The position numbers and the translations under genes were made by a program. Positions 1 through 5,298 of a DNA stretch of 5,876 nt are shown here, piece after piece. The stretch is taken from the IMG/VR virus record IMGVR_UViG_3300028481_000068. One strand, written 5' to 3'. Under the pieces are notes generated by a model that ran no database searches, had not been told where the DNA came from, and worked only from the letters and a program-made list of their open reading frames with translations. Each line of letters begins with the position of its first letter. The stretch's first letter is position 1. The stretch comes from a virus. Taxonomy: Duplodnaviria; Heunggongvirae; Uroviricota; Caudoviricetes.

Positions 1-480
1 ATCCTGCTCCCACAATGGAGAGTTACGCACTCCGGCTTGCGCCATACTGATGGTAAGCTCACGGGGTTCTGCTTCTCCTTTAAGAACTGCTGACACAGTT
101 ACCGTCAGATTCGGTGATTTATCTGTTTTTCCGTTAACATTCGACCAGTCACCGCTCCAGCGATAATTCAGGCGTGTCGCTAGCAGGATGGAAGAGGATA
201 CGACCGCGTTTACCAACTGTGCTTCGTAGCCTAACGTTCCGTTTACCACATGCGTTTTCTGCGCCACGGCGAAAGGGTTCATTCCCCATTGTGCCGCCTG
301 CATGGTCACCGCCAGACAATCGGCAGGTTTGCCTTCAAGATGTTTCGGTACAGTCGCTTTGCTTTGTGACATCAACTCCGCGAAACGCACCAGTTGATTC
401 ATGCCCTCCGGGCTGAAGATTGCCGCAGCAGTACCTACAGTTGCGCTTGGTTGTGATGTGATTGCGATATCATTGCTCAT
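1..480 (-). CDS. RecT/Redbeta-family single-strand annealing protein, N-terminal 160 codons only (C-terminus lies beyond the window start)
   Basis: Minus-strand frame from ATG at 480-478 is open to position 1; it is absent from the ORF track only because it has no stop in the window. My translation: MSNDIAITSQPSATVGTAAAIFSPEGMNQLVRFAELMSQSKATVPKHLEGKPADCLAVTMQAAQWGMNPFAVAQKTHVVNGTLGYEAQLVN... The AAQWGMNP segment resembles the ANQYGLNP core of lambda Bet as I recall it (not searched). The start ATG overlaps the TGA stop of the upstream exonuclease gene (ATGA). Confidence 0.6.
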   Translation of the reverse strand, partial: MSNDIAITSQPSATVGTAAAIFSPEGMNQLVRFAELMSQSKATVPKHLEGKPADCLAVTMQAAQWGMNPFAVAQKTHVVNGTLGYEAQLVNAVVSSSILLATRLNYRWSGDWSNVNGKTDKSPNLTVTVSAVLKGEAEPRELTISMAQAGVRNSPLWEQD

Positions 481-1298
481 ACGTACATATCCTGTTTACG
501 TGCCCAGTCAGGGCGTTTAATAATTTCCACGCCGCCCCATTCATCATTGATGCGGCATTCGTGATAGGTATTCAGATCCCGGCGGAACAGAGCGTGCCCG
601 GCATCGACATCCGGCGCATCAAGCTCGAACACGCGTACCGGATACCGACCACAATCAATGCTTTCGCTCACGGCAAGAAAGAAAAAACCATGCGGCTGAC
701 CAGTAACCCTCATTGCGCCTTCGCGGTACATTGCGTCCTGCACGTGGTAGCGGAATTCCTCGATGTGGCGTGCAAAACGGTCCATATCTGCAACCTTTTT
801 CACGTCGACGATCACGTTGTGCTCGTTCAGCCATTTGTCTGGACGAATTCGGCACAACTCACCCGTCTCTTCATCGTTCCAGTACATTGATGCTTCGCAG
901 TAACCAGGTGCTTCCAACATCCAGCGTGCCGCCGGATGAGCCATTGCGCTATCACGCATCAGCTCCAGTTTCCGCCACTGCTCGGCATCAAGTACCGTAA
1001 TCCCCATATCCGCCACATCACGAAGAAATGCCTCTTCGTCAGCTTTACCTTGTTTCGTCCGACGATCGAATTTCGGTGAAACAATGAAGCGTTTGTCGAA
1101 CTCTCCAGGCTCCAGAAGCAGACAGTGCAATGCGGTTCCCATATCCAGTGCAGACTTTTTCTCTTCGTCTTCTGGTGCTGCCTGAACCCATTTAAGAAGC
1201 GCCGGATTCTTGGCAACCATGTCCAGTTGCGACTTACTCACGCCGTCACCGGCGTGGTAGTCTTCGTTGCTGATGTCGAAATAAATTCCCGGTTTCAT
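477..1298 (-). CDS. PD-(D/E)XK-family exonuclease (RecE C-terminal domain-like / exodeoxyribonuclease VIII-like), 273 aa
   Basis: ORF-track protein MKPGIYFDISNEDYHAG... contains RIRPD ... VIVDVKKV, which fits a PD-x(n)-(D/E)-x-K nuclease motif. SD GAGGGA lies 6 nt upstream of ATG 1298. It sits directly upstream of, and is translationally coupled to, the annealase gene, the usual exonuclease/annealase pairing. Family assignment is from memory. Confidence 0.7.
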   Translation of the reverse strand: MKPGIYFDISNEDYHAGDGVSKSQLDMVAKNPALLKWVQAAPEDEEKKSALDMGTALHCLLLEPGEFDKRFIVSPKFDRRTKQGKADEEAFLRDVADMGITVLDAEQWRKLELMRDSAMAHPAARWMLEAPGYCEASMYWNDEETGELCRIRPDKWLNEHNVIVDVKKVADMDRFARHIEEFRYHVQDAMYREGAMRVTGQPHGFFFLAVSESIDCGRYPVRVFELDAPDVDAGHALFRRDLNTYHECRINDEWGGVEIIKRPDWARKQDMYV

Positions 1299-1768: not shown

Positions 1769-1783
1769 TTACCGTTGAGGTAA
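1769..1783. promoter_or_regulatory. Operator-like dyad TTACC-GTTGA-GGTAA, abutting the -10 of the leftward early promoter
   Basis: Perfect 5+5 inverted-repeat half-sites with a 5-bp spacer. Member of an eight-copy family confined to intergenic regions. Confidence 0.6.
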
Positions 1784-1902: not shown

Positions 1903-2487
1903 TTATTGTTTGTTTTTTTCGTTTTGGTTGATGACAAATTCAATGTAACTTTCGATCTTTGCTTTCTCGGTTTCGGGTAACAATGCGTAGCGCGAGCGAT
2001 CATAGTTGATGGTCGCAGGGTCGTGCGGGTGAATCAGTAATTCATAGCCGTGACGCCCGAATGCGGATGCAACATTCTCCAGGGTGGAAATGGAAACGCT
2101 GACCTCATTGTTTAACAGGCGGCTGATTGTCACCTGGGCGACGCCGGATGCGCGGTGTAGTTTTCCCTGCGTTGAAAGGTCGCGGCTTTCGCTCATCCAG
2201 CGTTCCAGGTTGTGAGCCGCCAGCTGACCAATGTCGCTTGGTCCGACAGGCTGAAAACCTTCCTGAGAAAGCGAGCGATCGATATCAAGCCAGTTACGGG
2301 GTTTATTGGCGGCAGCTTCAATTTTTCGCGCAACCTGGTCGCCGATAACCTTCTTGCCAAGAGCCCAGCGGTTTACCAGATTTGCCTGAGTTCCAAGTTT
2401 TTCTGCCATCCGCGTCTGAACACCATTGAATTCACGGTCGATCAAGTCGTTGAGATTTTGCCTGCGGACGTCCTGGATACTTTTCAT
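1903..2487 (-). CDS. Phage repressor-like DNA-binding protein with two XRE-type HTH segments and no recognisable LexA/S24-type autocleavage domain, 194 aa
   Basis: ORF-track protein. HTH-like segments QTRMAEKLGTQANLVNRW and GVAQVTISRLLNNEVSVSISTLENVASAF. I see no Ser/Lys peptidase-like C-terminal domain. It is divergent from the Cro-like gene, with shared operators in the 154-bp intergenic region. Confidence 0.7.
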   Translation of the reverse strand: MKSIQDVRRQNLNDLIDREFNGVQTRMAEKLGTQANLVNRWALGKKVIGDQVARKIEAAANKPRNWLDIDRSLSQEGFQPVGPSDIGQLAAHNLERWMSESRDLSTQGKLHRASGVAQVTISRLLNNEVSVSISTLENVASAFGRHGYELLIHPHDPATINYDRSRYALLPETEKAKIESYIEFVINQNEKNKQ

Positions 2488-2587: not shown

Positions 2588-2616
2588 TTGTTACCTTATG
2601 GGTGAATATTTATTAT
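2588..2616 (+). promoter_or_regulatory. Putative rightward early promoter (PR-like): -35 TTGTTA, 17-bp spacer, -10 TATTAT
   Basis: Hexamers at 2588-2593 and 2611-2616, by eye. An alternative pairing is TTGATT at 2581-2586 with GAATAT at 2604-2609. Drives the Cro-like gene. Confidence 0.35.
2591..2605. promoter_or_regulatory. Operator-like site TTACC-TTATG-GGTGA inside the rightward promoter
   Basis: 9 of 10 half-site positions match. Lies within the predicted spacer of the PR-like promoter. Confidence 0.5.
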
Positions 2617-2641: not shown

Positions 2642-2872
2642 ATGAGCGATAACGGACATTTCGATTTCAAAAAGCACTGGCTTGCACTTACTCCGGATGA
2701 GCGTGAAGCCTTCGCACAGGAAGCCGGAACGACGAGTCACTATATCCAGACTCACTTAACAGGTAAGCGCAAAATGCCAGGTAAGGTATTGATGAATGGG
2801 CTTTTTAAAGCCTGTAAAACAAGACAATGGCTGCGCTCAAAAGCAGAACTGGCATACTTCTTCTACTCATGA
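2642..2872 (+). CDS. Cro-like small HTH DNA-binding protein, 76 aa
   Basis: ORF-track protein MSDNGHFDFKKHWLALTPDEREAFAQEAGTTSHYIQTHLTGKRK... Divergent from the repressor across the operator region and followed by an intrinsic terminator. Called Cro-like from size, position and a putative HTH; family not verified. Confidence 0.55.
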   Translation: MSDNGHFDFKKHWLALTPDEREAFAQEAGTTSHYIQTHLTGKRKMPGKVLMNGLFKACKTRQWLRSKAELAYFFYS

Positions 2873-2894
2873 TATCCAGCCACAAACCTCTGTA

Positions 2895-2916
2895 GACCGC
2901 CATCCGGCGGTCTTTT
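2895..2916 (+). terminator. Rho-independent terminator downstream of the Cro-like gene (tR1-like position)
   Basis: GACCGCC-ATCC-GGCGGTC, a 7-bp GC-rich stem, followed by TTTT. Confidence 0.5.
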
Positions 2917-2927
2917 CATATCTATTC

Positions 2928-2942
2928 GTACCTCAAAGGTAA
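2928..2942. promoter_or_regulatory. Operator-like site GTACC-TCAAA-GGTAA just after the Cro terminator
   Basis: 9 of 10 half-site positions match. Lies 17 bp upstream of a possible -35 TTGATC (2960-2965), which has a weak candidate -10 CAAAAT (2983-2988). Confidence 0.35.
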
Positions 2943-3022
2943 CAAAAAACCAAATCTGGTTGATCTTTTTTTTGTGTCAGCACAAAATAACCGTAATCCC
3001 AATACTAATAACAGGGCTTACC

Positions 3023-3223
3023 ATGGAAATCATTACACGTATTGATGCCGCAAAGCGCGGACTTAAACGCTACTACACCGGAAAACCATGTAAGCACGGA
3101 CATGACAGTGAACGCTGGGTTTACAACGGACACTGTGTTGAGTGCACCATGGAATCAAACCGTCGCATCAGGGCAGAGATTAAGCAGATCATGATTAATT
3201 CCTCCCCACAACATTCAAGCTGA
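3023..3223 (+). CDS. Small Cys/His-rich putative zinc-binding protein, 66 aa (cII-like position, function unknown)
   Basis: ATG 3023 with AGGG 6 nt upstream; I prefer this over the ORF-track TTG start at 2960. Protein MEIITRIDAAKRGLKRYYTGKPCKHGHDSERWVYNGHCVECTMESNRRIRAEIKQ... has a C-x-H-x-H ... C-x2-C arrangement. Confidence 0.5.
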   Translation: MEIITRIDAAKRGLKRYYTGKPCKHGHDSERWVYNGHCVECTMESNRRIRAEIKQIMINSSPQHSS

Positions 3224-3238
3224 TAGCGGAGATTAATC

Positions 3239-4054
3239 ATGAGCAGACATGCAACAGATTGGGCCTGGGAGACAGATCCAGGCAGCTCATCATTAAAGCT
3301 CATACTGCTCTCGATGGCTGACAGAGCCGATGAATATAACCTCTGCTACCCCAGCATAGAACGCCTCGTTAAAGACACTTGTCTGAATAAAAAAACCGTG
3401 CAGGCCGGACTTATATCGCTCATGAAAATGGGGCTTATTTCAGATACCGGAGAGAGAAAGGGAGCGACGAAAAGAGTGCGGGTTTTCTCTCTTAATATAA
3501 CCAAAAAAGGGAACATTAAAGGCAACCTAGAAGGACGTAATGAACCCGAAAACGGTAATGTTCCCGAAAACGGGAATATACCCAAAAACGGGATGTTGAA
3601 TGATCCCAAAAACGGGATGTTGAATGATCCCAAAAACGGGATCCAGAACCAGTCATATAACCAGTCATTTAACCAAGAGAGGGAGAGCAGGACAAAAACC
3701 GGGGATTCTGTGCCTCATGACCCCGGCGCAAACAACGCCGTGATGAATAACTTTGTTCCTCCTGGTGGGCCAGGGCAATTAGGCAAATTTGTCATGCATG
3801 AACAATGGCAGCCATCAGATGACTTTCTTCGGAAAAGCTCATTGCAGGGGATCTACCTGGACAGTATGCCAACGGCACAGGAACTTGCAGAGTTCAGAAT
3901 TTACTGGATGGCTGAGGGTAAGGCATACCATCAGGCACAGTGGGAGCAGAAGCTGGCAAGGCGGCTGCAGATTAGCAGACAGAAGCAATCAACATTACCT
4001 GATAACAACGTTCCGCACTGGAACAGCCCTGAAGCATGGGAGGATTTCTTGTGA
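3239..4054 (+). CDS. Replication initiator, lambda O-like: N-terminal HTH origin-binding domain, repetitive linker, C-terminal domain of the DnaT/O type; 271 aa
   Basis: ORF-track protein. SD GGAG lies 7 nt upstream of the ATG. The linker NGNVPENGNIPKNGMLNDPKNGMLNDPKNG is encoded by the iteron array, as with ori inside lambda O. It lies immediately upstream of, and overlaps, the P-like gene. Domain names are from memory. Confidence 0.75.
   Translation: MSRHATDWAWETDPGSSSLKLILLSMADRADEYNLCYPSIERLVKDTCLNKKTVQAGLISLMKMGLISDTGERKGATKRVRVFSLNITKKGNIKGNLEGRNEPENGNVPENGNIPKNGMLNDPKNGMLNDPKNGIQNQSYNQSFNQERESRTKTGDSVPHDPGANNAVMNNFVPPGGPGQLGKFVMHEQWQPSDDFLRKSSLQGIYLDSMPTAQELAEFRIYWMAEGKAYHQAQWEQKLARRLQISRQKQSTLPDNNVPHWNSPEAWEDFL
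3545..3645. repeat. Iteron array: five direct repeats of core CCC(G/A)AAAACGG(G/T)A at 18-, 18-, 24- and 24-bp spacing; putative origin of replication
   Basis: Copies start at 3545, 3563, 3581, 3605 and 3629. Copies 3 and 4 are identical over 24 bp. Each core carries a CCCG/CGGG dyad around an A-tract. Followed by the tandem AACCAGTCAT(A/T)T x2 (3647-3670). Located inside the O-like coding sequence. Confidence 0.75.
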
Positions 4055-4836
4055 ACAACGTTTTTACCGCGATACAAAACCGTGACGGAGAAGCCCTTTC
4101 TCGCATGTCAGGTTATGAGCATCAGTACACTAACAATGACAACGTGGTGAACATGTCAGCAGAGAGGCTTGTTGATGCCCTTTTCAAACAGTTGAAACAA
4201 CTGTTTCCGGCGGCAGTGGTAACCAACCTGAAGACGCCAGAGCAGGAAGTTGCTGCAAAACAGCAGTGGATTGCTGCGTTTGCCGAAGGGGGGATCCGAA
4301 CCCGTGAACAGGTTTCTGCTGGTATGCGCCACGCCCGCGCCAGTGAATCTCCGTTCTGGCCGTCGCCAGGGCAATTTATCAAGTGGTGCAAAGACAGCAA
4401 GATGGTTCTTGGCGTCACCATTGACGATGTGATGGCGGAGTTTCACCGGTACAGCAAGGAAAAAAGTTTATATCCTGGTGGTCCCGAAAGATTCCCGTGG
4501 CGGCATCCGGTTATGTACTGGGTCGTATGTGATACCCGCCGTGCAATGTATCAGCGCCAGCTTAGCGAGATTGAGGTTGAGAAACACGCGCGCAGGATGC
4601 TCGATGATTGGGCGAAAAAGGTGGCTTCCGGACAGCAGATACCCGATCCGGTGATCAGCATACAGGCAAAGCCAGAGCCCATGAGTACACCTCCGGACAC
4701 AGGGAGAGACGTTTACCATCCACCAGGGCGAAGTTTCGGGTGTATGCCTAACGCCGCCACCCTGGGGGGAATAACACCGGCGCAGTGGCTGATGGAGGAA
4801 TACAGGCGGGGAAAGGCGTCAGGATTTATCAAGTAA
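4051..4836 (+). CDS. Replication protein P-like (replicative helicase loader), 261 aa
   Basis: The segment AAKQQWIAAFAEGGIRTREQVSAGMRHARASESPFWPSPGQFIKWCKD matches my recollection of lambda P (...RRQWVLAFRENGITTMEQVNAGMRVARRQNRPFLPSPGQFVAWCRE...). I chose the GTG start at 4051: GGGAGGA lies 6 nt upstream and it overlaps the O-like stop (GTGA). The ORF-track ATG at 4036 is an alternative. Confidence 0.85.
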   Translation: MNNVFTAIQNRDGEALSRMSGYEHQYTNNDNVVNMSAERLVDALFKQLKQLFPAAVVTNLKTPEQEVAAKQQWIAAFAEGGIRTREQVSAGMRHARASESPFWPSPGQFIKWCKDSKMVLGVTIDDVMAEFHRYSKEKSLYPGGPERFPWRHPVMYWVVCDTRRAMYQRQLSEIEVEKHARRMLDDWAKKVASGQQIPDPVISIQAKPEPMSTPPDTGRDVYHPPGRSFGCMPNAATLGGITPAQWLMEEYRRGKASGFIK

Positions 4837-4873: not shown

Positions 4874-4888
4874 TTACCTGTTGGGTAA
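4874..4888. promoter_or_regulatory. Operator-like dyad TTACC-TGTTG-GGTAA, upstream of the third promoter
   Basis: Perfect half-sites, 19 bp upstream of the -35 TTGATT. Confidence 0.6.
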
Positions 4889-4907: not shown

Positions 4908-4936
4908 TTGATTTCGTGTCTTATGTGGTTTTTAAT
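4908..4936 (+). promoter_or_regulatory. Putative rightward promoter downstream of the replication module: -35 TTGATT, 17-bp spacer, -10 TTTAAT
   Basis: Hexamers at 4908-4913 and 4931-4936, flanked by operator sites at 4874-4888 and 4936-4950. The spacing is identical to the pL-like module (operator, 19 bp, -35, 17 bp, -10 overlapping the second operator by 1 nt). Confidence 0.45.
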
Positions 4937-4950
4937 TACCTCAGGGGTAA
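4936..4950. promoter_or_regulatory. Operator-like dyad TTACC-TCAGG-GGTAA overlapping the -10 and the 5' leader of ORF 4954
   Basis: Perfect half-sites, ending 3 nt before ATG 4954. Confidence 0.6.
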
Positions 4951-4953
4951 ATC

Positions 4954-5298
4954 ATGAGAAAACAGATACAGGCTCTTGGTCGACTCAAAACAGGCCAGAT
5001 GAACAAAACAGAATCTGCGTATTGCCAGCACCTTGAGCTGCGTAAACGTGCAGGAGAAATCGCCTGGTATCGATTCGAGGGTATCAAGCTGCGGTTAGCT
5101 GACAACACGTTCTATACGCCCGATTTTGCTGTGATGCTCGCCACCGGCGAGATGGAACTGCACGAAGTGAAAGGTTTCTGGACCGACGACGCCAGGGTGA
5201 AAACCAAAGTCGCTGCAGATCAGTATCCGTTCAGAATCATCGGGGTAACTGTTAAGCCAAAGAAAGCAGGTGGTGGCTGGAACATCGAAGAGTTCTGA
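4954..5298 (+). CDS. Small PD-(D/E)XK-fold nuclease-like phage protein, 114 aa (possibly DUF1064-type)
   Basis: ORF-track protein with FYTPDFAV ... MELHEVKG, which fits a PD ... E-x-K motif. First gene downstream of the operator-flanked promoter. DUF1064 naming is from memory and unverified. Confidence 0.6.
   Translation: MRKQIQALGRLKTGQMNKTESAYCQHLELRKRAGEIAWYRFEGIKLRLADNTFYTPDFAVMLATGEMELHEVKGFWTDDARVKTKVAADQYPFRIIGVTVKPKKAGGGWNIEEF

Follow-up and report, generated by a model that had tools for sequence, protein, structure and literature searches.

Within the window, by which we mean the whole stretch of 5,876 nucleotides analysed here, a repressor gene and the small helix-turn-helix (HTH) gene gp41 diverge across a cluster of operators. 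A terminator, a repressor site, a second palindrome and a predicted promoter then separate gp41 from gp42, which is followed by an O-like and a P-like replication gene (Table 1). The DNA is 98-99% identical to that of phage phiV10 (Uetakevirus), and the gene order is that of genes 40-44 of phiV10 (DQ126339.2) and genes 38-42 of Salmonella phage epsilon15. By its sequence, the region belongs to a common E. coli prophage of the phiV10/epsilon15 type, in which it forms the early control region. Similar DNA was found in 541 of 5,426 complete E. coli genomes (about 10%), yet no mapped transcript starts or ends for this phage group were found in the literature.

Table 1. Genes and control elements of the early region, with their positions in the window
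Feature	Position	Strand	Description
Prophage repressor Rep, 194 aa	1903-2487	-	Two HTH regions, no protease domain
OR-like operator cluster	2543-2605 (2543-2557, 2560-2574, 2591-2605)		Between rep and the Cro-like gene; overlaps the PR-like promoter
PR candidate	2588-2616		TTGTTA-17-TATTAT
gp41, Cro-like HTH protein, 76 aa	2642-2872	+	Sole gene between PR and the terminator
Intrinsic terminator	2894-2916	+	8-bp stem, 4-nt loop, T-run (UUUUCAUAUCU in RNA)
Predicted Rep operator	2928-2942		GTACCTCAAAGGTAA; 1 mismatch to TTACC-N5-GGTAA; centre at about -60 from the predicted start
Second palindrome	2948-2961		AACCAAATCTGGTT (AACCA-N4-TGGTT); centre at about -40.5; its final TT also opens the -35
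Predicted sigma-70 promoter	2960-2988	+	-35 TTGATC (2960-2965), 17-nt spacer, -10 CAAAAT (2983-2988); predicted start at about 2995
gp42, 66-aa zinc-ribbon protein	3023-3223	+	C23-x3-H27...C38-x2-C41, long helix at the C terminus; heads the replication operon
O-like replication initiator	3239-4054	+	HTH_36 and DnaT domain (Pfam, PHROG); carries five iterons
Lambda P-like helicase loader	4036-4836	+	Phage_lambda_P, E 1.4e-56; last gene of the unit

Repressor, operators and terminator

Based on sequence searches, the repressor matches the structure of SPC32H Rep (5d50) over residues 1-189 with an E value of 1.9e-41, and its Pfam match is HTH_3. The palindrome TTACC-N5-GGTAA is presumed to be the operator of this SPC32H-type repressor. 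Ten matches with at most two mismatches occur in the window against 1.55 expected, a number reached in none of 200 shuffles, and the motif is found 14 times in phiV10 (0.71 expected) and 15 times in epsilon15 (0.56 expected). Nearly all of the sites are intergenic, and few intergenic control regions in phiV10 and epsilon15 lack one. As in the window, the motif also marks the annotated repressor sites of the epsilon15 record, which lists eight of them, several at other promoters. The three sites of the OR-like cluster carry 0, 2 and 1 mismatches, with matrix scores of 21.8, 13.9 and 18.3 bits for those starting at 2543, 2560 and 2591, respectively. Additionally, the immunity DNA of phage ZX5 is 98% identical to that of the window, and overexpression of the ZX5 repressor blocks lytic transcription, in a paper that makes no mention of operators or terminators (PMC9782041).

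The product of gp41 matches phrog_35, “transcriptional repressor” (E 5.6e-13), and its AlphaFold2 model has five helices with a pLDDT of 86. A profile of gp41 homologues weakly matches the HTH of the immunity repressor 8bny (E 0.019), and the single sequence gave no match among PDB sequences. gp41 is thus a small HTH protein encoded divergently from the repressor gene across operators, and both its position and its fold suggest that it may act as Cro.

The terminator starts 21 nt after the gp41 stop codon. Its stem arms, AGACCGCC (2894-2901) and GGCGGTCT (2906-2913), enclose the loop ATCC and are followed by TTTCATATCT; six of the eight base pairs are G-C, and the hairpin reaches -15 kcal/mol in the MFE and centroid structures alike. 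This GC-rich hairpin with its U-run, on the same strand as gp41 and downstream of it, corresponds to a “putative rho-independent terminator” annotated at 33078-33100 of phiV10 DQ126339.2. Terminator-like sites occur in the window at the level of shuffled sequence (7 against 6.0 expected), and the support for this one therefore comes from its position and conservation, not from number. It is kept in the Tyrion, Erwinia, Superficieibacter and Pantoea relatives, in which the loops vary and the stem differs little, each time by a G-U wobble; altogether, a hairpin of -14 to -16 kcal/mol followed by the U-run is present in six lineages. Epsilon15 and two Citrobacter prophages have a weaker hairpin (-11 kcal/mol) at this place with no U-run, and hence no canonical terminator, together with a degenerate left half of the adjacent operator. 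In these three, read-through from PR probably reaches the replication genes, which indicates that the design can do without the terminator. For the present phage, an end of the PR transcript at 2894-2916, and its efficiency, are predicted from the sequence; because the U-run consists of just four U and then a C, read-through could be substantial here too.

Predicted promoter and repressor site of the replication genes

The hexamers of TTGATC-17-CAAAAT agree with the consensus at 8 of 12 positions, which include A2 and T6 of the -10, and it is owing to this low number that a simple scan missed them. The same scan proposed an antisense promoter at 2896-2869, which is not conserved in Tyrion and was taken as chance. 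As a single sequence, the promoter scores 9.1 bits in the matrix, below the 95th percentile of shuffles (10.2 bits), so that the evidence for it comes from comparison with relatives. In all eight divergent relatives the top-scoring sigma-70 site lies at the homologous place, with 8.3-10.4 bits against 2.3-4.3 bits for the next site with a different -35, and both hexamers are kept while the spacer sequences differ. The score is also comparable to those of PR, PL and the DUF1064 promoter in the window (8.2-11.3 bits). Directly after TTGATC, two types of replication module, both starting with a gp42 homologue, meet at a recombination joint, and the promoter is thus itself a mosaic joint between module types. 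The comparison suggests that the promoter is active and that gp42 and the two replication genes behind it are probably transcribed from it. A separate promoter for these genes had been proposed in a preliminary description of this DNA; the eight relatives make it probable, whereas the single sequence by itself is not significant.

Upstream of the promoter, the palindrome at 2928-2942 scores 17.9 bits in the position weight matrix, compared with 18.3 bits for the operator at 2591. It is 15 bp long, belongs to the family enriched at control regions and has its cognate repressor encoded nearby, which makes it a candidate binding site of Rep. Seven of the eight relatives have its right half-site, GGTAA, unchanged and always 17 nt from the -35; the exception is a rearranged Pantoea prophage. 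At the PL and DUF1064 promoters the upstream operator stands 19 nt from the -35, and based on this similar spacing, we take the site at 2928-2942 to be the counterpart of their distal operator. No second Rep operator is present at +1 of the replication promoter, where the best matrix score is 0.2 bits. Since the operator is centred at about -60, does not overlap the core promoter and has no partner at +1, simple occlusion of RNA polymerase is not expected.

Three elements between gp41 and gp42 had already been pointed out in the preliminary description, namely a 7-bp GC hairpin with a T-tract behind the Cro-like gene, an operator-like site and a candidate -35/-10. The first is the terminator of Table 1, the second coincides exactly with the palindrome at 2928-2942 and belongs to the Rep operator family, and the third is present as TTGATC-17-CAAAAT at 2960-2988.

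The zinc-ribbon protein gp42 and the replication genes

The gp42 reading frame is preceded by AGGG 6 nt upstream of its ATG, and its product matches phrog_1081 with an E value of 7.7e-43. Residues C23, G26, H27 and C38 are invariant in the alignment of homologues, and C41 is present in at least 90% of the sequences; the signature G-K-x-C-x3-H...C-x2-C and the sequence homology mark the protein as a zinc-ribbon module. In the AlphaFold2 model (pLDDT 90.6), a zinc knuckle is joined to one long helix, with no HTH. A profile search matched 15,374 clusters. In phage proteins, usually two to five copies of the module stand in tandem before an HNH or endonuclease VII domain. The module matches predicted structures of HNH proteins and of a group I intron endonuclease, and it occurs in lytic phages as well. 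No Pfam model matched the module itself, abundant as it is.

gp42 is a single copy of this module, has no nuclease domain and travels with the replication module, not with the immunity module. Because the module occurs in tandem in HNH and endonuclease VII proteins, gp42 probably binds DNA; its ligand pattern and the nuclease fusions are consistent with binding of both zinc and DNA. Neither a cII family match (Pfam, PHROG) nor a cII-type HTH was found for it. The most likely role of gp42 is that of a small accessory protein that binds DNA within the replication module, and not that of an analogue of cII. The preliminary description was right to place a 66-aa protein with a zinc-ribbon-like motif, and with no cII-like HTH, where cII would be; the likeness to cII goes no further than position, however. 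The protein is a phage zinc-ribbon module recognised by homology, and the occurrence of that module in lytic phages and nucleases, together with the linkage of gp42 to the replication module, leaves nothing that points to a regulator of lysis and lysogeny.

The O-like gene contains five iterons, CCCRAAAACGG, at 3545-3639, where 0.01 would be expected. A weak hairpin (-7.4 kcal/mol) with a T7 run lies 3' of the P-like gene, and a terminator is annotated there in phiV10 (35038-35057). The layout of a terminator followed by a promoter is repeated by the other units of the window.

Transcription of the replication genes and comparison with known systems

No sign of antitermination was found. The window has three boxA-like matches against 4.5 expected, and neither the PR nor the PL leader contains one; a search of the whole window against Rfam, with E up to 10, returned just chance matches to terminator-like stems; no arginine-rich N-like frame or Q-like family match was found among the window's open reading frames; and no antiterminator is annotated in the phiV10 genome. 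The early N-like protein and the boxA with boxB hairpin of a lambda-type system are thus both missing from the window, in agreement with the preliminary description.

The best explanation of the region as a whole, and one that we consider rather probable, is that the early right arm is made of separate repressor-controlled units with their own promoters, and not of an antiterminated operon. The first unit would run from the PR-like promoter in the OR cluster as a short gp41 transcript, ending at least largely at 2894-2916. The second would begin about 80 nt beyond the terminator, at the sigma-70 promoter with its start near 2995, would carry gp42, the gene of the O-like initiator, which includes the iteron origin, and that of the P-like helicase loader, and would end at the hairpin and T-run after P. 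A third, from DUF1064 onward, would again be transcribed from a separate promoter, with an operator on either side. In a lysogen, Rep would hold the units off through the TTACC-N5-GGTAA operators at each promoter, with 2928-2942 as that of the second unit, and it would be removed by an antirepressor and not by RecA cleavage. As transcription of the replication genes most likely begins at a conserved promoter of their own, the model can do without N, nut or put. We regard this layout as ordinary modular early transcription without antitermination and as largely known from annotation, since separate units are already implied by the phiV10 and epsilon15 records. How the O-like and P-like genes are reached, which the preliminary description had left as a puzzle, is no longer one in a region that is phiV10's and whose terminator had already been annotated there, as had repressor sites with this motif at several other promoters in epsilon15. 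The internal promoter, an operator at the 2928-2942 position and the second palindrome are not annotated in either record.

The replication promoter alone scores no better than chance in AT-rich DNA and may therefore need an activator. It is possible, though we think it unlikely, that this weak promoter requires a phage protein on the second palindrome, whose centre lies at the classical position of a class II activator. That protein could be gp41, as the product of the PR transcript, or gp42, which would then act on the promoter of its own gene. Rep, at -60, would obstruct either the activator or the RNA polymerase alpha subunit, and a terminator together with a promoter that needs an activator would take over the task of the lambda terminator and N. 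Besides the weak core hexamers, the conservation of the palindrome in seven of the eight relatives, within otherwise variable DNA, favours this possibility. In phiV10, AACCA-N4-TGGTT has nine matches against 1.17 expected, five of them intergenic and each of these sharing its intergenic region with a Rep operator, and CWWATNTGGTT has nine against 0.38. Furthermore, gp41 is 76% identical between phiV10-type phages and epsilon15, and the motif is the same in both. The motif is common to the replication promoter and the late promoters; however, at the latter it lies 7 nt before a -10-like hexamer with its centre at about -26, and at the PL and DUF1064 promoters only half-sites are found, within the spacer, so that one mode of action does not fit all. 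Moreover, OR, where a Cro analogue should act, has no copy of the motif, and the Pantoea relative keeps the promoter without a clear palindrome. No discriminating signal of covariation of gp41 or gp42 with the palindrome was seen across the available relatives, because gp41, gp42 and the motif are all conserved in them. The palindrome, which adjoins the -35, was overlooked in the preliminary description, and by eye it fits neither the DnaA box nor the IHF consensus.

A broader version, which strikes us as distinctly improbable, is that Uetakeviruses replace N-type antitermination with a cascade in which gp41 or gp42, on AACCA-N4-TGGTT at -40.5, activates the replication promoter, and the same motif, as CATATRYGGTT-N7-TAnnAT, serves the -35-less head, tail-fibre and lysis promoters. 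In such a cascade gp42 could form dimers through its long helix, as Ogr does. If gp42 did act in this way, a very large orphan zinc-ribbon family would gain its first function, as a transcription factor.

That the replication genes are expressed chiefly by read-through from PR seems to us improbable. The hairpin would then be leaky or an mRNA-stabilising 3' structure, and TTGATC/CAAAAT would be minor or inactive and would owe its conservation to something else, such as a role in binding or in recombination at a hotspot. The short and interrupted U-run, the epsilon15-type relatives that have no canonical terminator at the homologous place and the unremarkable score of the promoter as a single sequence would all fit. 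However, eight lineages retain the hexamers and a spacing of 16-17 nt although the sequence in between has wholly changed, the lineages with strong terminators (U6 in Pantoea) would be left with promoterless replication genes, and the other units share the same layout. Finally, an unrecognised N-like, Q-like or put-like protein or RNA that carries PR transcripts past the terminator is hardly credible: it has general precedent in lambdoid phages and HK022 and could hide among several small open reading frames of unknown function in both early arms, but the searches above found no trace of it, and a PR leader of about 20-30 nt with a hairpin directly after gp41 leaves no room for a put-like or nut-like RNA.

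Several known systems resemble parts of this region. Ogr, Delta and 186 B are small zinc-finger activators of late genes in P2-like phages, and gp42 is likewise about 70 aa long, has four zinc ligands and is encoded by a temperate phage. It differs in having no Pfam Ogr/Delta match and in its C-x3-H...C-x2-C spacing, and its module is also found in lytic phages and nucleases; the resemblance is, therefore, best treated as a lead. The DNA-binding modules of homing endonucleases (the NUMOD-type concept) offer a parallel to the gp42 module with its tandem copies before HNH or endonuclease VII domains; the gp42 module, however, matches no Pfam model, and gp42 itself carries it once and lacks a nuclease domain.

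With regard to repression, the Rep/Ant switch of SPC32H was reportedly described by Kim and Ryu in 2013 and Kim et al. in 2016 (PDB 5d50 and 5d4z). The Rep homologue is clear here, and an antirepressor gene is present in the same phage group (phiV10 gp23; ZX5 ORF4). In this comparison, the predicted Rep site at 2928-2942 stands alone, whereas the operators of PL and of the DUF1064 promoter are paired, 62 bp apart. Repressors with many dispersed operators are also known from P1 (C1) and from mycobacteriophage L5, whose gp71 acts at “stoperators” that are asymmetric and orientation-dependent. The present repressor resembles them in its roughly 14 to 15 sites across the genome, almost all intergenic and several adjoining terminators, but its sites are palindromic and placed at promoters, and it has no homology to C1 or gp71.

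The closest likeness in gene order is to lambda PR-cro-tR1-cII-O-P, as a repressor, divergent promoters, a small HTH gene, a terminator, a small gene, an O-like gene with internal iterons and a P homologue follow one another in both. The lambda terminator tR1 is Rho-dependent. Here, by contrast, the terminator is intrinsic and is followed by a separate predicted promoter, N, boxA and boxB are missing, and the small gene encodes a zinc ribbon in place of cII. An immunity and replication region that looks like that of lambda may thus be able to function without antitermination, each unit being followed by a terminator and then by the next promoter with its own repressor site.

The early region and its probable transcription units

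Early rightward transcription in this phage is probably modular. A message from PR, the gp41 promoter inside the OR operator cluster, would stop at an intrinsic terminator; the replication operon (gp42 and the O-like and P-like genes) would start at its own promoter and stop after P; and the next unit would have its own promoter and operator pair. The repressor Rep would keep all of these units off through dispersed operators, from which an antirepressor would release them.

Between 1750 and 4100 the DNA is 98-99% identical over its full length to phiV10, vB_EcoP_PAS61, phiv142-3 and other members of Uetakevirus, the epsilon15-like temperate podoviruses, and 541 of 5,426 complete E. coli genomes contain a similar stretch. 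Five iterons of the form CCCRAAAACGG (0.01 expected) lie within the O-like gene, followed by a 12-bp repeat, and this predicted origin has the lambda-type layout. In lambda, transcription near the origin helps initiation, and origin activation could also be served by the replication promoter, which lies some 550 bp before the iterons. Rep has a match (E 1.9e-41) in 5d50, a crystal structure of the SPC32H phage repressor, and the immunity DNA of phage ZX5 is 98% identical to that of the window. Overexpression of the ZX5 repressor abolished free phage and lytic transcripts, and the ZX5 antirepressor had the opposite effect (PMC9782041).

The name "Cro-like" for gp41 is reasonable from its position and predicted fold: it matches phrog_35, a family labelled "transcriptional repressor", at E 5.6e-13, five helices are seen in its model (pLDDT 86), and its homologue profile weakly matches the HTH of the immunity repressor 8bny (E 0.019). 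An identical gp41 (100% to an E. coli prophage protein) on a 408-bp contig of coverage 0.75 in the myxobacterial assembly of Corallococcus exercitus (NZ_RAVW01000927.1) is almost certainly assembly contamination. At the left end, RecE-like (DUF3799) and RecT-like genes are separate ORFs in the window, ZX5 and Enterobacter phage Tyrion, and recET is annotated as a single fused gene in phiV10 (window 1-1298 set against positions 789-2549 of the compared locus), a fusion that may reflect a frameshift or sequencing difference.

Coordinates of predicted genes and sites in the window and of related motifs in other phages
Feature	Genome	Position	Remark
RecE-like nuclease and two small ORFs	window	leftmost genes	minus strand
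Operators, PL side	window	1769-1783, 1831-1845	strong matches, perfect
Repressor (Rep)	window	1903-2487	minus strand
Operators, gap between repressor gene and gp41	window	2543, 2560, 2591	strong matches
gp41	window	2642-2872	76-aa HTH protein
Terminator hairpin	window	2894-2913	AGACCGCC-ATCC-GGCGGTCT, then TTTCATATCT
Operator of replication promoter	window	2928-2942	GTACCTCAAAGGTAA
Second palindrome	window	2948-2961	AACCAAATCTGGTT
-35 and -10 of replication promoter	window	2960-2965, 2983-2988	TTGATC, CAAAAT
gp42	window	3023-3223	66-aa Cys/His protein
O-like initiator	window	3239-4054	DnaT domain
Iterons	window	3545-3639	
12-bp repeat	window	3647-3675	
Lambda-P homologue	window	4036-4836	
Operators before DUF1064	window	4874-4888, 4936-4950	strong matches, perfect
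DUF1064 nuclease-like gene	window	4954-5298	
Operators	phiV10	87, 105, 3252, 20497, 20877, 24692, 26870, 31953, 32015, 32727, 32775, 33112, 35070, 35132	
62-bp operator pairs	epsilon15	32555/32617, 35907/35969	
Late-promoter-like motif	phiV10	3305-3318, 20918-20931, 24736-24749	
Late-promoter-like motif	epsilon15	2985-2998, about 24780	
Late-promoter-like motif	Tyrion	about 4025, 21820, 26455	

Predicted promoter and operator, and a palindrome, ahead of the replication genes

The preliminary description had suggested that the 66-aa ORF and the replication genes may have their own promoter, and had pointed to TTGATC and CAAAAT hexamers and an operator-like site upstream; all are present, the hexamers 17 nt apart and the operator one mismatch from the presumed Rep motif TTACC-N5-GGTAA. 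With a simple position weight matrix TTGATC-17-CAAAAT scores 9.1 bits, below the 95th percentile of shuffles (10.2) for a spacer this rich in AT; one sequence therefore proves nothing. For this predicted promoter much stronger evidence is provided by the gp41-gp42 spacers of Tyrion, of prophages of Candidatus Erwinia dacicola, Superficieibacter electus, Pantoea ananatis, Citrobacter braakii and C. werkmanii, and of phages epsilon15 and ZX5. The top-scoring site lies at the homologous position in all eight (8.3-10.4 bits), as TTGATC or TTGATA, 16-17 nt, then CAAAAT, AAAAAT or GAAAAT; the promoter spacers are unrelated in sequence, and the next-best site with a different -35 reaches 2.3-4.3 bits. 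These scores lie within the range of the other predicted promoters of the window (PR 10.6, the leftward early promoter PL 11.3, DUF1064 8.2 bits).

A mosaic recombination joint falls at 2965/2966, directly after the -35, with near-identical sequence to its left and unrelated sequence to its right. Nine of 53 distinct viral-contig variants, as well as ZX5 and phage TL-2011b, match the window exactly as far as TTGATC and then carry a different replication module. Its first gene is again a gp42 homologue, of 70 aa, about 60% identical and with a TTG start (MKIVTRMEAAKAGLNRYFTGKRCRHGH...), which is unannotated in ZX5 (MW722083.1, 4772-4984) and TL-2011b (JQ011317.1, 6424-6582). Since both module types lead with a gp42 homologue after the joint, the comparison places gp42 in the replication unit, which begins at the predicted promoter.

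The window holds ten matches to the operator motif at up to two mismatches, compared with 1.55 expected, and none of 200 shuffles reaches ten; the strong matches fall in three regulatory gaps, and the site at 2928-2942 is the remaining match. PL and the DUF1064 promoter are each bracketed by two perfect operators exactly 62 bp apart from centre to centre, one of them upstream of the -35 at a distance of 19 nt, its partner over the -10/+1 region. This spacing, which recurs in epsilon15, fits a repressor tetramer clamping both sites. The replication promoter has the upstream operator only, 17 nt from its -35, and no second operator was found around its +1 (best score 0.2 bits). The right half-site GGTAA and the 17-nt distance are invariant in seven relatives, and the left half varies. 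Control of this promoter by Rep is plausible from these alignments; since the operator is centred near -60 (given a start near 2995) and lacks a +1 partner, the mode of action cannot be simple occlusion. Rep could disturb upstream contacts of RNA polymerase, bridge as a tetramer to OR, 340-390 bp away, or block a neighbouring activator.

Between operator and -35 lies a palindrome, AACCA-N4-TGGTT, missed in the preliminary description, which is centred near -40.5 and whose last two T are the first of the -35; it is kept in seven of eight relatives. The phiV10 genome has nine matches at up to one mismatch (1.17 expected), of which five are intergenic, each sharing its intergenic region with a Rep operator, and nine matches to the looser CWWATNTGGTT (0.38 expected). 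The motif forming this palindrome also occurs ahead of three operons (portal, tail-fibre and lysis) in phiV10, epsilon15 and Tyrion. Each copy there is arranged as CATATRYGGTT, then 7 nt and a -10-like TAnnAT without a -35, and lies downstream of a Rep operator. The arrangement looks like an activator-dependent late promoter. That the replication promoter likewise depends on an activator, using the palindrome, seems unlikely to us; its register differs, with 21 nt from motif to -10.

The predicted terminator after gp41, and antitermination

The hairpin and T-run first described after the Cro-like gene are present, and the hairpin folds at -15 kcal/mol in minimum-energy and centroid structures alike. 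Terminator-like patterns are no more frequent across the window than in shuffles, and weight is therefore put on relatives. In the phiV10 record this hairpin carries the label putative rho-independent terminator, and so do the hairpins after the repressor and P-like genes. Six lineages retain both a hairpin, at -14 to -16 kcal/mol, and the UUUUCAUAUCU after it (U6 in Pantoea), with differing loops (ATCC, TTCT, GCCT, TAAA) and G-U wobbles as the stem changes; likewise, among 44 distinct E. coli variants polymorphism lies mostly in the loop, and the few stem changes are wobbles. The predicted terminator is usual, not universal, in the group, because the hairpin of epsilon15 and of both Citrobacter prophages folds less stably (-11 kcal/mol) and no U-run follows it. 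That the replication genes are reached chiefly by transcription running on from PR is, in our judgement, rather improbable.

The 11 bases 3' of the T-run (CATATCTATTC, region 2914-2927) show no change between the window, ZX5, Tyrion and Erwinia; Superficieibacter retains CATATCTATT, and Pantoea retains CATATCT, also the start of the late-promoter motif. As aligned, this conservation exceeds what would be expected of a terminator tail.

The reported lack of an N/nut system is borne out: the window has no boxA-like sequence above chance and none in the early leaders, no Rfam match and no ORF resembling N or Q, and the phiV10 genome has no annotated antiterminator. With the PR leader and the 21 nt from the gp41 stop codon to the hairpin too short for a nut-like or put-like RNA, a hidden antitermination system is very improbable indeed.

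The gp42 zinc ribbon and comparison with known systems

The 66-aa Cys/His ORF noted earlier is preceded, six bases from its ATG, by a Shine-Dalgarno-like AGGG, and homologues have N-termini consistent with this start. Its zinc-ribbon-like motif is conserved: C23, G26, H27, S29, E30, R31 and C38 never vary among the aligned homologues, and at least 90% of sequences have C41, which makes C-x3-H...C-x2-C the likely zinc ligands. It does occupy the cII position, as had been remarked, but the resemblance to cII goes no further than position, and nothing connects it with the choice between lysis and lysogeny. The AlphaFold2 model (pLDDT 90.6) has short strands forming knuckles and one long helix (residues 39-60). 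gp42 is placed in phrog_1081 (E 7.7e-43), a family without an assigned function, and matches four other PHROGs more weakly, one of them annotated endonuclease VII. No Pfam or NCBIfam family matched and no similar solved structure was found; among predicted viral structures the matches were uncharacterised phage proteins and entries labelled group I intron endonuclease, recombination endonuclease VII or HNH nuclease.

When a profile was run against 1.84 billion representative proteins, 15,374 clusters (50% identity) were returned at E <=0.001, and most of the top matches are 150-540 aa long and carry the module two to five times in tandem. Pfam HNH matches 24 of 93 such proteins and Endonuclease_7 matches 11 of the 93, and their consensus ends in an HNH motif. 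By tblastn the module is found in 196 phage records, including the lytic JenP1 and SE1Kor, where it lies among DNA-metabolism genes. The nuclease-linked tandem copies and the presence in lytic phages indicate that the module is a general zinc ribbon, probably DNA-binding, of which gp42 appears as a stand-alone copy; by profile similarity it defines a very large family, mostly of two to five tandem repeats in phage HNH/endonuclease VII proteins. An origin accessory, a regulator and a homing-nuclease remnant are the candidate roles for gp42.

In substance, the proposed modular scheme is not new: the terminator is annotated in phiV10, dispersed repressor sites in epsilon15, and a structure has been solved for the repressor family. 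No annotation exists for the predicted internal promoter, its predicted operator or the palindrome, but elements of these kinds are ordinary. The remaining interest lies in the palindrome, whose motif is shared with the late promoters, and in a very large zinc-ribbon family without a Pfam model match. Genome-wide, the operator motif occurs at 14 sites in phiV10 (0.71 expected) and 15 in epsilon15 (0.56 expected; eight annotated in its record), almost all intergenic and lying ahead of terS, the portal operon, and the tail fibre, lysis and integrase genes. Repressors with many dispersed operators are found in P1 and L5, and the pattern here resembles that of P1 C1 or L5 gp71.
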